Position numbers and translations under genes: made by a program
Source: Cenarchaeum sp.
GTDB lineage: Archaea > Thermoproteota > Nitrososphaeria > Nitrososphaerales > Nitrosopumilaceae
Assembly (NCBI GenBank): GCA_965212015.1
Contig: OZ243037.1
Span: 384,001-448,000, forward strand
Direction of reading: 5' to 3'
DNA: 64,000 bases
The notes under the pieces: model-generated
The model's database searches: none
The model's input: the letters and a program-made list of their open reading frames with translations, nothing else
What the model was told of the DNA's origin: nothing
Part shown: in pieces, positions 44,989 to 49,471 of the stretch
Position numbering within the stretch: the stretch's first letter is position 1
How the letters are laid out: each line of letters begins with the position of its first letter

Positions 44989-46161
44989 TTGACGAGGGTC
45001 ACAATTTCCACTAAAAAATCACAACACGCAGGCAAAAACGCCAAACTGATCTTCGATGACGGGACGGTTTTGGAGGGGAGCGGATTTGGCCATCCGGCCA
45101 CCGTTTATGGTGAGATCGTCTTTAACACGGGGATGGTCGGATATACAGAGACCCTCACCGATCCGTCATATCGCGGTCAAATCCTGACCATTACGTACCC
45201 GCTTGTCGGAAACTATGGCGTGCCAGACGGCAGCCAGAAGGACGGGGACGGCATATCAAGATACTTTGAGTCAGACAAAATCCAGATCCGCGGCCTGGTA
45301 GTCCACGAGCTCTCCACCACTGCAAGCCACTGGAATCTTGCAATGACGCTAGACGAATGGATGTACAACGAGAAAATTCCCGGAATATCGGGCATCGACA
45401 CGAGGCAGCTGACAAAAAAACTCCGGGACGGCGGCGTGAGGATGGCCGCCCTGGCAGTATCAGACGGCCAGATATCCCCAGACGGAATAGCCGGTGATCT
45501 CAGGCGCGCAAAAAAATACGATTCAGAGGAGTTTATGGATGCAGTGTCCACAAAAAAGACACAGTCGTTTGGCAGCAGCGCAGATGCCGTGGTGGTGATA
45601 GACACGGGTGCAAAAAACGCAATACTGCGAAACGTCTGCGAGATGGGATACAGGGCAGTCAAGGTGCCGTGGAACGCGCCGATTGAGGACATACTATGCC
45701 ACAACCCGAGCGGCGTGATAATCAGCAACGGCCCCGGAGACCCGCAAAAATGCCCCGACACCATAAGGACTGCAAAGTCGCTGATTCAAAAAAACATACC
45801 CACGCTCGGAATCTGTCTTGGCGCGCAGATAATAGGACTGGCAGGAGGTGCGGAGACGTACAAGCTAAAGTACGGACACCGCGGACAGAACAAGTCGTGC
45901 CTCAACCTGGGGGACGGCCAGGTATATGTGACCAGCCAGAACCACGGATACGGCATCAGCCCGCAGTCACTTGACGGCTCCGAGTTTGACCTGTGGTTTA
46001 CAAACACCGACGATCACACAGTGGAGGGAATAAGGCACAGGACCCAAAACTGCATCGCCGTCCAGTTCCATCCCGAGGCGTCCCCGGGACCTTACGATTG
46101 CAAATTCGTTTTCAAACAACTGCAAGCCATGATGGAGGAGGGAAACCCTGCCAAAAAATGA
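44989..46161 (+). CDS. carA: Carbamoyl-phosphate synthase small subunit
   Basis: GEIVFNTGMVGY.E.LTDPSY.GQI, GIDTR, SNGPGDP, GICLG, GHRGQN, SQNHGY and QFHPEASPGP motifs. Confidence 0.97.
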   Translation: MTRVTISTKKSQHAGKNAKLIFDDGTVLEGSGFGHPATVYGEIVFNTGMVGYTETLTDPSYRGQILTITYPLVGNYGVPDGSQKDGDGISRYFESDKIQIRGLVVHELSTTASHWNLAMTLDEWMYNEKIPGISGIDTRQLTKKLRDGGVRMAALAVSDGQISPDGIAGDLRRAKKYDSEEFMDAVSTKKTQSFGSSADAVVVIDTGAKNAILRNVCEMGYRAVKVPWNAPIEDILCHNPSGVIISNGPGDPQKCPDTIRTAKSLIQKNIPTLGICLGAQIIGLAGGAETYKLKYGHRGQNKSCLNLGDGQVYVTSQNHGYGISPQSLDGSEFDLWFTNTDDHTVEGIRHRTQNCIAVQFHPEASPGPYDCKFVFKQLQAMMEEGNPAKK

Positions 46162-49100
46162 GACGCTGAAAAAGATTCTCGTTCTAGGCAGCGGGGCAAT
46201 AAAAATCGGAGAAGCCGGCGAAAGTCGCTAAAACGACCGCAAATTTGACTACTCCGGTAGCCAGTGCCTCAAGGCAATTCGCGAGGACGGACTGCAAAGT
46301 GTGCTGATAAACCCAAACATCGCCACGATTCAGACGGACACCAGGTTTGTGGACAAGGTGTATTTGCTTCCAGTCGACAGGCAGTATGCGGGATCCATAA
46401 TAGAGTCCGAGCGGCCCGACGGCCTGATGCTTGCCTTTGGCGGCCAGACTGCGCTCAACTGCGGCGTGGCCCTAGACGAGTCGGGAATCCTCAAAAAATA
46501 CGGAATCAAGGTCCTGGGAACGCAGGTGTCCGGAATCAAAAGGACCGAAAACAGGCAGCTCTTCAAGGACTCGATGAAGGAATGCGGAATGCCGGTCCTC
46601 AAGAGCAGCACCGTCACCAGCTTTGATGACGCAAAAAAGGCCGCAAAAGGCCTGGGATACCCCGTCATCGTGCGAGTCGCATACACGCTGGGCGGAAAGG
46701 GCGGCGGCGTGGCATACAACGAGATTGAGCTACACGAGATAGTAGAGCGCGGCATCAATGCGAGCCTTGTCGGGCAGGTCCTCATCGAGGAGTATATCGG
46801 CCACTGGAAGCAGATAGAGTACGAGGTGATGCAGGACTGCTCTGCAAACAGCGTCATCGTATGCAACATGGAAAACGTGCTTTCGATGAGGGTGCATACG
46901 GGCGACAACATTGTGGTGGCCCCCTCGCAGACCATCAACAACCGCGAATACCACATGATGCGCTCCGCTGCGCTGCGTGCCACAAGGCACGTGGGCATAA
47001 TCGGCGAGTGCAACATACAGTACGCCCTTGATCCCGGCTCGGACAGGTATGTCGCAATAGAGATAAACCCGCGCCTTTCGCGCTCCTCTGCGCTTGCCAG
47101 CAAGGCCACGGGGTATCCGATAGCGTACATGGCAGCAAAGATCGGGCTGGGCTACTCGCTGCCGGAGCTCTCAAACCACATTACAAAGTCGACTACGGCG
47201 TGCTTTGAGCCGTCGCTTGACTATATAGTCTGCAAGCATCCGCGCTGGGATTTCTCAAAGTTCGAGCAGGTAAACCGAAGGATAGGTGTCACCATGAAGT
47301 CAGTAGGCGAGGTAATGGCAGTGGGCAGGACGTTTGAGGAGTCGCTTCAAAAGGCGATTCGCATGCTCGATATCGGGCGCGACGGCCTAGTCCTGAACAG
47401 GACCGACGGCAGCACGTACGACGAGGAACAGATAGAAAACCACCTTGGCAATCCCGATGATCTCATACTGTACCATGTCGCAGCAGCGCTAAAGAAGGGG
47501 ATTTCAGTCCAAAAGATATACGCGCTCTCCTCCATCGATCCGTGGTTTATAGAAAAGATAAAAAACATTGTCTGCGTCGAGGAGCAGATCAAAGGCGGGC
47601 TGGATGCAGGAATGCTGCGCCGGGCCAAGGCGTCCGGATTTTCTGACAGGCAGATTGCGCACGCCGTCAGCTCCACGCCCGAGGAGATACGCAAGATGCG
47701 CAAGGAGCACCGCATAGTGCCGTGCGTCAAGCAAATAGACACGCTGGCAGCAGAATGGCCCGCAAAGACGAACTATCTCTACCTTACCTACGGGGGATGC
47801 GCCAACGACATCAAAGTCGAGCAGGACAAAAAGGGGATAATGGTGCTAGGTGCCGGCCCGTACAGGATTGGCAGCAGCGTAGAGTTCGACTGGGGGACAG
47901 TCAACATGGTAGGCGGCCTCAAAGAGCACGGCGAAAAAAACGTCTCCATAGTAAACTGCAACCCCGAGACTGTCTCGACTGATTACGACATTTGCGACAG
48001 GCTGTACTTTGAGGAGATTACCGACGAGAGGATTCTGGACATTGTAGAGTTTGAGGATCCAAGGGGGGTGATAACGTGCGTGGGCGGCCAGACGGCAAAC
48101 AACCTTACGCCAAAGCTTGCAGAGTGCGGCATAAGCATACTTGGAACCAGCGCAAAAAACGTCGATTCGGCGGAGAACCGCTCAAAGTTCAGCAGCGTGC
48201 TAGACACGCTGCACATAAAGCAGCCGCTGTGGCAAGAGTTCACAAGTTTGGGCGAGGCCAAGAGCTTTGCCCAGCAGGTGGGCTATCCGGTAATCGTGAG
48301 GCCATCGTACGTCCTGAGCGGCGCGGCGATGAAGACCGTATGGTCGCAGGGGGAGCTCAAGACGTACGTCAAGGAGGCAACTGACGTCTCGCCGGATCAC
48401 CCCGTCGTCATATCAAAGTTCATGCTAGACTCGCTAGAGGTGGACGTCGACGGCGTCTGCGACGGCAAAAACATAGTCATCGGTGCAATCGTCGAGCACA
48501 TCGACAGCGCCGGCGTCCACTCGGGTGATGCAATGATGTGCATTCCGCCGTGGAGGCTAAGCAACAAGGTAATCGAGACCATAACTGACTATACCAACAA
48601 GATTGCGCTGCGCTTTGACATACGCGGCCCGTTTAACCTGCAGTTTCTGGTGCACGAGGGGCACGTATACGTGATAGAGCTAAACATACGCGCGTCGCGA
48701 TCCATGCCGTTTGTCTCAAAGCTCGTAAGGCTGAACCTCATTCATCTTGCGGCAGGAGCGATTTTGGGCAAGGGCCTGCCGGATATTCCCAACGACCGGT
48801 GGAAAAAGACCAACAACTATGGGATAAAGGTGCCGCAGTTCTCATTCATGCAGCTAGACGGGGCCGACATTGTGCTCGGAGTGGAGATGCAGTCCACCGG
48901 CGAGGCCGCCTGCTTTGGCACCAGCTTTTATGACGCGCTATCCAAGGGACTCACCTCCGTGGGGTACAACCTGCCAAAGTCCGGCACCGCCCTAATCACG
49001 ATAGGCGGCACGAAAAACAAGGAAAAGCTGCTCTCCACCGTGGCGCACCTGAAAAGCCTGGGATTCGAAATCCTGGCCACCGAGCACACTGCAGAGTTTT

Positions 49101-49471
49101 TCCAGGAAAAGATACCGGACATAAAGATAGTGCACAAGATAAGCGAGCCGGAGCGAAAGCCGAACATATCGGATCTTCTGCATGGCAGAAAAATCGACTT
49201 TATCATCAACATTCCGAGCACGTCGACTCTGGAAAAATACGTGGGCATGCTGTACGACGAGTACCAGATAAGAAGAAAGGCCCTCGAGCTGGGAATCCCG
49301 GTCCTTACCACCACCGAGCTTGCCGAGTCGTTCGTAAAGACGCTGGAATGGCTCCAAAACAACGAGACTACAAAGCTGCCACTGGCCCCCTACAAGGAGG
49401 TGTTCTATGACCGTGGAACACGAGGGACGGAGGATGCGCGCCCGTCCGGCACGAAGCATTCAGCAGACTAA
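46148..49471 (+). CDS. carB: Carbamoyl-phosphate synthase large subunit, interrupted by a putative 21-nt intron (exons 46148-46222 and 46244-49471; 1100 aa if spliced)
   Basis: From CTG at 46148 the frame reads PKNETLKKILVLGSGAIKIGEAGE[SR*NDRK]FDYSGSQCLKAIREDG, in frame with the 46301 ORF. Two ATP-grasp halves (GAGPYRIGSSVEFDW, RPSYVLSG) and an MGS domain follow. Confidence 0.95.
46223..46243 (+). other. Putative archaeal bulge-helix-bulge(-like) mini-intron in carB mRNA
   Basis: AGTCGCTAAAACGACCGCAAA, containing an in-frame TAA. Predicted fold: GGCG/CGCA central helix, AAA and AAU bulges, GUCG/CGAC intron stem, and exon-exon stem CGGAG/CUCCG. Confidence 0.8.

Follow-up and report, generated by a model that had tools for sequence, protein, structure and literature searches.

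Introduction

Introns that are removed from protein-coding transcripts of Archaea by the transfer RNA (tRNA) splicing endonuclease have been described in cbf5, where, according to PMC2738675, they measure 16-44 bp, occur in Crenarchaeota (Desulfurococcales and Sulfolobales), fold mostly into relaxed bulge-helix-bulge (BHB) motifs and are processed by a hetero-oligomeric endonuclease that cuts after the second unpaired residue of the bulge and before the third. The same source describes these introns as patchily distributed, with gains and losses, and often mis-annotated, with some of them merely keeping the frame; it also tabulates cbf5 as intronless in Cenarchaeum and Nitrosopumilus. Here we analyze a stretch of 64,000 nucleotides from Cenarchaeum sp. 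(positions 384,001 to 448,000 of the forward strand of contig OZ243037.1, assembly GCA_965212015.1; hereafter, the window), in which the carbamoyl-phosphate synthase (CPSase) gene carB is interrupted by 21 nt at positions 46223-46243 of the window. With a probability that we put at roughly 0.85, this insert is an archaeal endonuclease-type mini-intron within the coding region, with a relaxed BHB motif and spliced by EndA and RtcB.

The candidate carB intron resembles those of cbf5 in that it is short (17-52 nt among relatives, against 16-44 bp), lies in a coding region, adopts a relaxed BHB motif that obeys the same cut rule, would depend on a hetero-oligomeric endonuclease, is patchily distributed and occurs in a gene prone to mis-annotation. 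It differs in that the host gene encodes a central metabolic enzyme rather than an RNA-modification enzyme and belongs to Nitrososphaeria rather than Crenarchaeota; moreover, every in-frame carB intron contains a stop codon (37/37), whereas some cbf5 introns are merely in frame, and splicing of carB is deduced from sequence whereas that of cbf5 has been demonstrated with cDNA and with in vitro cleavage. With the BHB introns of archaeal tRNA and rRNA the carB element shares a 4-bp central helix, splice sites on opposite strands and the enzymes expected to process it; unlike them, it resides in a coding mRNA, has an exon helix built from codons and has its 3′ splice site in a 5-nt loop. The canonical form, hBHBh′, has a 3-nt bulge for each of its two unpaired segments (PMC7714728). 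The same source describes a BHB intron in the 5′ untranslated region (UTR) of the HVO_1309 mRNA of Haloferax volcanii, which is a substrate of the splicing endonuclease; the carB mRNA is predicted to be such a substrate as well, but its intron interrupts the reading frame, whereas that of HVO_1309 lies in the leader and is cut by the homodimeric euryarchaeal enzyme.

With respect to novelty, the 2009 account speaks of no gene besides cbf5 as confirmed to have such an intron (PMC2738675), and the 2020 account names cbf5 as the only other BHB intron reported outside tRNA and rRNA besides its own 5′-UTR case (PMC7714728). We found no report of a carB intron for Thaumarchaeota/Nitrososphaerota in full-text searches of a literature collection short of most subscription journals, so that an earlier report may exist. 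The carB intron is probably the second protein-coding-region intron of the BHB kind in Archaea, after cbf5.

Outside the Archaea, a parallel is found in the HAC1 and XBP1 mRNAs of eukaryotes, in which a short coding intron is cut by IRE1 and the exons are joined by an RtcB-type or a tRNA ligase, without a spliceosome, as part of a regulated stress switch. Spliceosome-free removal of a short coding intron would likewise alter the encoded product in the case of carB; however, the nuclease would be the tRNA splicing endonuclease rather than IRE1, and regulation is known for HAC1/XBP1 only.

Results

An insert at a conserved codon junction of carB

An initial annotation of the window had placed a 21-nt insert with an in-frame stop codon between a Glu and a Phe codon of carB, and all of its coordinates proved correct on re-reading: the insert is flanked by GAA (46220-46222) and TTT (46244-46246), and the in-frame TAA lies at 46229-46231. 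On the 5′ side of the insert the carB frame encodes ...LKKILVLGSGAIKIGEAGE and then runs through Ser and Arg into the stop; on the 3′ side it continues as FDYSGSQCLK... and stays open for 1075 codons, up to a stop codon that ends at 49471. The rest of both genes is intact, as had also been claimed, with 390 aa in carA and the 1075 open codons of exon 2 in carB. Both products belong to CPSase families as judged by Pfam, exon 2 matching the CPSase ATP-binding domain at 1.5e-97. In the CarB protein of an intronless relative the pre-ATP-grasp domain (CPSase_L_D1) comprises residues 8-124, so that the break between residues 25 and 26 falls inside this domain.

The genome is a single contig of 1.76 Mb (99.74% complete) in which carB is single-copy, the next-best match being an ATP-grasp protein that is 23% identical; this contradicts the possibility, raised at the outset, of a simple pseudogene with a second, intact carB elsewhere. 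An assembly error had been considered as well. Logan contigs assembled separately from the public runs X1 and X2 span the insert without an indel, and one contig of 3643 nt from X1 has 0 differences over 45978-46600, although these runs may be the source sample of the genome and hence are not fully independent. Given that these contigs carry the 21 nt, the insert does not result from an assembly error, and since homologous inserts are present in dozens of independently assembled genomes, the probability of any assembly or sequencing artefact is practically negligible.

A related strain that co-occurs in runs X1-X3 (74 differences over 490 nt) has the two changes T46225C and A46236G, which convert a U-A pair of the intron hairpin into C-G and are thus compensatory.

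Reading frame of the unspliced RNA

We pooled 91 loci with an insert, which correspond to 71 distinct sequences with insert lengths of 17, 20-23, 25-28, 30 and 52 nt. The insert shifts the frame in 34 of the 71, and the 37 in-frame inserts all hold a stop codon. Exon 1 (25 codons) is conserved as protein in all intron-bearing genomes, whatever its frame relative to exon 2. That all 71 inserts cause a frameshift or a stop while exon 1 is conserved rules out both a peptide insertion that the protein tolerates and a gene in decay, and it requires exact removal of the insert. The position of the stop codon varies among the in-frame introns (TAA in the loop, TAA or TAG at the last codon, TGA), the rows not being phylogenetically independent; its universal presence may stem from the A-rich loop or from selection against translation of the unspliced RNA. 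The earlier statement that the unspliced transcript yields only a 27-aa peptide holds if translation starts at the CTG at 46148, but no ATG, GTG or TTG is available in this frame.

Conceivably, the insert could be kept and CarB could be made in two pieces or in an N-terminally truncated form, that is, as a peptide of 25-27 residues and a protein with a downstream start such as GTG 46301, or the RNA could be processed by enzymes other than EndA and RtcB. A mechanically called open reading frame (ORF) of 1056 aa indeed begins at GTG 46301, downstream of the insert. However, a protein starting at 46301 would lose, besides exon 1, 19 conserved residues (FDYSGSQCLK...) from the domain at residues 8-124; all intron-bearing genomes conserve, as protein, exon 1 together with the opening codons of exon 2; and the conserved RNA geometry (see below) predicts the intronless junction exactly. 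We consider this group of explanations highly unlikely.

RNA structure and predicted cut sites

The minimum free energy (MFE) fold of 46199-46264 (66 nt) has a value of -16.2 kcal/mol (z = -1.97; 8 of 200 shuffled sequences are as stable) and consists of an outer exon-exon helix, a central helix (46218-20/46238-40), a 3-nt bulge and an inner stem (46224-27/46234-37). G46217 faces A46241 in a G·A mismatch, and the 3′ unpaired segment covers 46241-46245 in this fold; owing to the mismatch, the 3′ segment is a 5-nt loop and the motif is a relaxed BHB. It departs from the canonical hBHBh′ form in that a 3-nt bulge on the 5′ side is combined with a 3′ segment of 5 nt (columns 41-45 of the alignment described below) opposite 1 nt (column 14). 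Of the fold drawn by the initial annotation, the inner stem, the central helix and its G·A end are recovered in the MFE structure, in which the place of the second bulge or loop is taken by the 5-nt asymmetric loop.

Comparative evidence for this structure comes from an alignment of 57 distinct rows (the window and 56 of 62 distinct relatives), from which six rows with inserts of 17, 27, 28, 28, 30 and 52 nt were left out in order to keep it poor in gaps. In the named structure 93.7% of the cells are paired, compared to 21-54% when the partners are slid, and shuffled alignments of these related rows have 14.9±2.6 double-change cells where the real one has 48, a count that none of 500 shuffles reaches. 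The inner stem shows compensatory changes at four of its five pairs, and its four core pairs (22-25) are without a single unpaired cell. The central helix is paired in 97.4% of the cells, with alternation of G-C and G-U and with one compensatory change from C-G to U-A that involves a synonymous exon base, and the outer helix of 10 pairs is 95.3% paired and mostly invariant. RNAalifold, run unguided, arrives at this set of helices and leaves unpaired the segments described above. Furthermore, an alignment-free check anchored at the exon ends of the 71 sequences, which takes in the six rows dropped above, finds the inner three pairs of the central helix in 71/71 and all four in 63/71, together with an intron-side closing stem (h′) of 3-8 bp in 71/71; 69 of the introns begin with A, and the penultimate base is A in all 71.

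In every aligned row, on both strands and for any intron length, the Glu|Phe borders deduced from the protein lie 2 nt past the central helix, which is where the cut rule of the cbf5 endonuclease introns places them. The structural cut rule and the protein-deduced junction are two independent rulers, and they agree; the earlier observation that the rule, applied at both sites, gives the Glu|Phe junction holds irrespective of intron length. In the window, a splice placement shifted by one base gives the same product and is indistinguishable, because the last base of exon 1 and the last base of the intron are both A.

The same structural features bear on ribosomal bypassing, in which the insert would stay in the mRNA and the ribosome would get past it by hopping or through another programmed event, with the hairpin and the stop codon serving as signals. 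Bypassing by ribosome hopping is known in gene 60 of phage T4, and a short hairpin together with a stop codon near the take-off site is typical of known bypass sites; the carB insert is short, forms a hairpin and often has its stop near the presumed take-off site. However, a matching landing codon is needed, and with GAA or GAG as the take-off codon no row offers a Glu landing codon, because C, U or A opens the last insert triplet in 57/57 rows (column 40). Moreover, a covarying exon-intron central helix with unpaired segments at a fixed distance is the geometry of a splicing endonuclease substrate, and inserts of up to 52 nt retain the same architecture at their ends. Bypassing is in our view very improbable.

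Constraint on the exon bases

Third-codon positions that pair in the exons are under constraint in intron-bearing genes, while those left unpaired vary. At the paired four-fold sites in columns 8 and 17 the entropy is 0.47 and 0.30 bits in intron-bearing genes compared to 1.87 and 1.83 bits in intronless ones; at the unpaired four-fold site in column 14 the corresponding values are 1.32 and 1.77 bits. The comparison of paired with unpaired sites inside the intron-bearing genes is independent of phylogeny and GC content.

Phyletic distribution and history of the candidate intron

Among 30 relatives searched, 28 have a carB match, and the junction could be read at the DNA level in 27 (the sequence of G004 ends at the junction). 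In 19 of the 27, an insert sits precisely at the Glu|Phe codon boundary; the other eight have none. In a second set, consisting of the best 80 named loci of a collection of species-representative genomes, of which 79 were scored, 61 Nitrososphaerota loci have the insert and 18 have none. Relatives thus share an insert at the same codon with covarying stems, a comparison that the initial annotation had proposed. The carriers are labelled Nitrosotenuis, Nitrosarchaeum, Nitrosotalea, Cenarchaeum and Nitrosomaritimum, and further include part of Nitrosopumilus, one Nitrosopelagicus and Nitrososphaera/Nitrososphaeraceae, with inserts of 27-52 nt in the Nitrososphaera-type carB genes.

A class-wide sample queried with the N-terminus of an intronless relative's CarB comprised 151 genomes, 107 of them with a match. 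The family to which the window belongs contributes 81 genomes, 51 interrupted and 30 uninterrupted: an in-frame insert with a stop is found in 31 of the 81, including the window and the unpublished genome G153, and in another 20 the match begins only at residues 19-25, a frame-shifting insert being confirmed in eight of these. Two other families of the order show the two opposite states (3/3 uninterrupted in one, 3/3 interrupted in the other). Of 20 genomes from the remaining orders of the class, 19 are uninterrupted, the exception (G075) having a 23-nt insert of the same architecture, and in the rest of the phylum, outside the class, 66 of 67 matched genomes are uninterrupted, with G189 as the apparent exception. 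The intronless carB genes are joined exactly at the predicted splice junction.

In a quick maximum-likelihood tree of 300 exon-2 residues from 104 rows, a single-gene tree whose root was not inferred, intronless carB genes are nested within intron-bearing clades, and at least 11 changes of state are required compared to 22.5 for shuffled labels; four of the minimum 11 are forced by well-supported branches. Given that the intronless outgroups are basal and that one carrier belongs to another order, the simplest reading is that the intron was gained early within the class and then lost, exactly and repeatedly, the biggest cluster of losses falling in Nitrosopumilus/Nitrosopelagicus, with gain and loss not formally separated.

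Several individual loci deserve comment. L098, from a Thaumarchaeota metagenome-assembled genome (MAG), is intronless, yet its exon flanks are as competent for pairing as those of its intron-bearing neighbours (10/10 outer pairs), and in the tree an unresolved fork unites it with three loci (L086, L087 and L096), one intron-bearing and two intronless; it seems to have lost its intron exactly and recently. L036, on a 2484-nt contig labelled as a Candidatus Heimdallarchaeota MAG, encodes a carB that is 85% identical to that of the window and has the 21-nt intron typical of Nitrosopumilaceae, and it is probably mis-binned. In the genus-mate G001 (locus L025) carB runs in two frames near exon-2 residue 670, owing to a sequencing error or a real frameshift; a second insert at this break was considered and rejected, as the break consists, when the DNA is aligned, of small indels within a variable region. 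In G003 and G004, of the same genus, the match is split by ~57-94 nt at exon-2 residues ~455-467 within an open frame of 1131-1172 aa, which we take for extra protein sequence inserted in frame behind the oligomerisation domain and not for an intron-like break.

Putative splicing machinery and search for further introns

The genome encodes two EndA paralogues (ORFs of 177 aa, at 1246-1779 on the plus strand of locus L112, and 201 aa, at 1435-2040 on the minus strand of locus L113), each with tRNA_int_endo_N and tRNA_int_endo domains, and one RtcB (locus L114). Thaumarchaeota are credited with an endonuclease of the α2β2 type, which is associated with relaxed, non-canonical motifs (PMC4090602); by this analogy, the two paralogues would form a heterotetramer. 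ARAGORN reports 45 tRNA genes in the genome, several with short introns (13-47 nt), but folds around five of the reported tRNA introns showed no clean BHB at the reported coordinates. Several calls in the ARAGORN list have 'introns' too long to be plausible (177, 613 and 740 nt), and isoacceptors recur, Ser(gga) three times for example; such calls are probably false or mis-delimited. The cbf5 gene is uninterrupted (TruB_N match); the candidate intron of this genome resides in carB and not, as in the cbf5 family, at the catalytic Asp codon of cbf5.

The initial annotation had suggested that a scan of the genome for other split genes with BHB-shaped inserts might uncover further cases. The scan gave no excess over controls: a core BHB descriptor matched the two real strands 12,913 times and reversed/complemented controls 12,900 times, and a filter for sites at which splicing opens a long ORF that is broken in the unspliced form retained 1411 of the 12,913 descriptor matches compared to 4591 of 38,739 random positions. 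For lack of enrichment over controls, such a scan cannot discriminate further mini-introns.

Contigs of the public runs show only the DNA form; short ones that match up to 46222 and continue with exon-2-like sequence have 4-7 differences per 47-54 aligned bases and are read here as intronless relatives rather than cDNA. A scan of metagenome contigs with a degenerate junction motif retrieved 14 contigs, none of them near an intron-bearing genome, and lends no support either way: three of the 14 share 91-98% identity with L098, an intronless locus, and the best segments of the other 11 are ~65-74% identical to any Nitrososphaeria locus compared.

Translation start and features of the carA-carB locus

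The first 14 nt of carB, counted from its presumed start, lie within the 3′ end of carA, and from the stop at 46130-32 up to the insert the carB frame contains no ATG, GTG or TTG. The CTG at 46148-46150 aligns with the ATG or TTG start codon of relatives, and a GGAGG/GGGAGG block precedes the carB start at equal spacing in the relatives compared. Of 69 named loci, 31 have a CTG here, 22 of them with an upstream in-frame stop that deprives carB of any canonical start, and the Nitrosotenuis-labelled loci have ATT, ATA or ATC near it. This pattern points to initiation at a non-AUG codon or to carA-coupled reinitiation. The coordinates of the features are collected in Table 1.

Table 1. Coordinates and evidence for the features of the carA-carB region, in positions of the window.
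Feature	Coordinates	Strand	Basis and remarks
carA, carbamoyl-phosphate synthase small subunit	44989..46161	+	ORF, 390 aa, intact; Pfam CPSase_sm_chain 1e-47, GATase 9.7e-47
Shine-Dalgarno-like GGAGGAGGG	46134..46142	+	5 nt 5′ of presumed carB start; putative function
carB exon 1, 25 codons, CTG 46148 (presumed non-canonical start) to GAA 46220-46222	46148..46222	+	translations; alignment to relatives
Outer exon-exon helix, 5′ strand	46205..46215	+	MFE fold, pair counts, RNAalifold, codon constraint
Central 4-bp helix, exonic strand GGCG	46217..46220	+	predicted to pair with 46238-46241; fold, alignment, RNAalifold
5′ 3-nt bulge AAA	46221..46223	+	unpaired in MFE fold and RNAalifold; predicted cut 46222/46223
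Candidate carB intron, 21 nt, TAA 46229-46231	46223..46243	+	sequence; same-boundary inserts of 17-52 nt in relatives
Intronic hairpin, stem 46224-27/46234-37, loop 46228-33	46224..46237	+	covariation
Central helix, intronic strand CGCA	46238..46241	+	A46241 faces G46217 unpaired in this genome
3′ unpaired segment, 5-nt asymmetric loop	46242..46246	+	alignment columns 41-45; predicted cut 46243/46244
carB exon 2, 1075 codons and stop	46244..49471	+	ORF; Pfam CPSase_L_D2, D1, D3, MGS
Outer exon-exon helix, 3′ strand	46247..46258	+	MFE fold, pair counts, RNAalifold, codon constraint

The irregular start is relevant to the view that carB is a pseudogene, broken by the stop-bearing 21-nt insert and by loss of its start codon. 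Besides the in-frame TAA and the lack of an ATG, GTG or TTG start, this view can draw on the lifestyle of the clade, which, judging from the named relatives, includes symbionts in which gene decay would be plausible. However, the gene is the sole carB of an almost complete genome, its exon 2 has retained an open frame of full length with a highly significant match to the CPSase ATP-binding domain, the same site is interrupted in most relatives across the order with covarying stems and intact exons, and the CTG at the start position is common to the 31 loci mentioned above. Thus, a pseudogene appears extremely unlikely.

Discussion

The proposal that carB contains a BHB-type mini-intron in need of removal is strongly supported by the shared boundary in relatives, by insert lengths that frequently are not multiples of three, by covariation, by the constraint on paired exon positions, by the exact junctions of intronless genes, by the single copy of carB and by the presence of EndA and RtcB genes. 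In the mechanism that we envisage, the carB pre-mRNA would fold such that exon 1 pairs with exon 2 in the outer helix, the exonic GGCG pairs with the 3′ part of the intron in the central helix, and the remainder of the intron forms a small hairpin. In this arrangement a 3-nt bulge would hold the 5′ splice site and a 5-nt loop, across on the other strand, the 3′ splice site, both of them 2 nt from the central helix; the tRNA splicing endonuclease, a two-subunit enzyme encoded in this genome, would cut at the two sites, and RtcB would join the exons, restoring the Glu-Phe junction of the pre-ATP-grasp domain and with it a CarB of 1100 residues, whereas the unspliced RNA would direct the synthesis of the 27-residue peptide only. 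That cleavage and ligation occur, and that EndA and RtcB are the enzymes involved, is what we infer from this evidence. The persistence of the intron could be accounted for by the rarity of exact deletions combined with selection for spliceability.

Several observations weigh against this interpretation. The single-sequence fold is no more than modestly better than those of shuffled sequences, and the motif is non-canonical, with the 3′ site in a 1x5 asymmetric internal loop and a G·A as the outermost pair of the central helix. The rows of related genomes are non-independent, so that the shuffle statistics overstate significance. The outer helix, moreover, is largely invariant, and coding imposes a constraint on it too; 6-10 of its 10 pairs, most often 8 (15/23 rows, with G·U allowed), form in intronless genes, and the exon-flank motif occurs uninterrupted in distant carB genes (metagenome contigs L153-L166). 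Given that intronless and distant carB genes display it too, the exon-exon complementarity follows in part from the codons of the conserved peptide, and the outer exon helix may pre-date the intron. The absence of a canonical start codon is a second irregularity of the gene, which on its own, without the comparative data, would also fit a decaying gene. Finally, the runs that contain the stretch number four, from two studies, and none is on record as RNA, so that splicing itself stays a deduction.

A further question is whether the intron serves a purpose. The intron might be a checkpoint: through it, the first committed step in the synthesis of arginine and pyrimidines would be tied to how active the EndA/RtcB tRNA-splicing machinery is. 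Under such a scheme, the stop codon or frameshift present in 71/71 sequences would silence the unspliced mRNA, and the weak non-AUG start would act as a second throttle. The stop or frameshift and the non-AUG start are, however, equally compatible with a throttle and with a passive intron, and the repeated losses indicate that the intron is dispensable. We regard a checkpoint function as unlikely.

If the proposed splicing is correct, carB would provide the first BHB coding intron in a metabolic enzyme and the first in Nitrososphaeria, a class whose ammonia oxidisers dominate the archaeal communities of ocean and soil. Gene callers will truncate carB or label it a pseudogene in most of these genomes, and metabolic reconstructions based on such annotations could wrongly infer arginine or pyrimidine auxotrophy. 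Furthermore, the 71 natural variants, together with the covariation and the exact losses, constitute a data set on the mRNA substrates of relaxed-specificity endonucleases and on the gain and loss of introns, and the named loci include cultured intron-bearing strains, for example Candidatus Nitrosotenuis chungbukensis MY2 (L044, with an insert of 21 nt) and Candidatus Nitrosopumilus salarius BD31 (L048, 22 nt). Should the checkpoint hypothesis turn out to be true, carB would represent a regulated, spliceosome-free mRNA splicing switch in Archaea, with a logic like that of HAC1/XBP1, kept in a group that ranks among the most abundant microbes on the planet.

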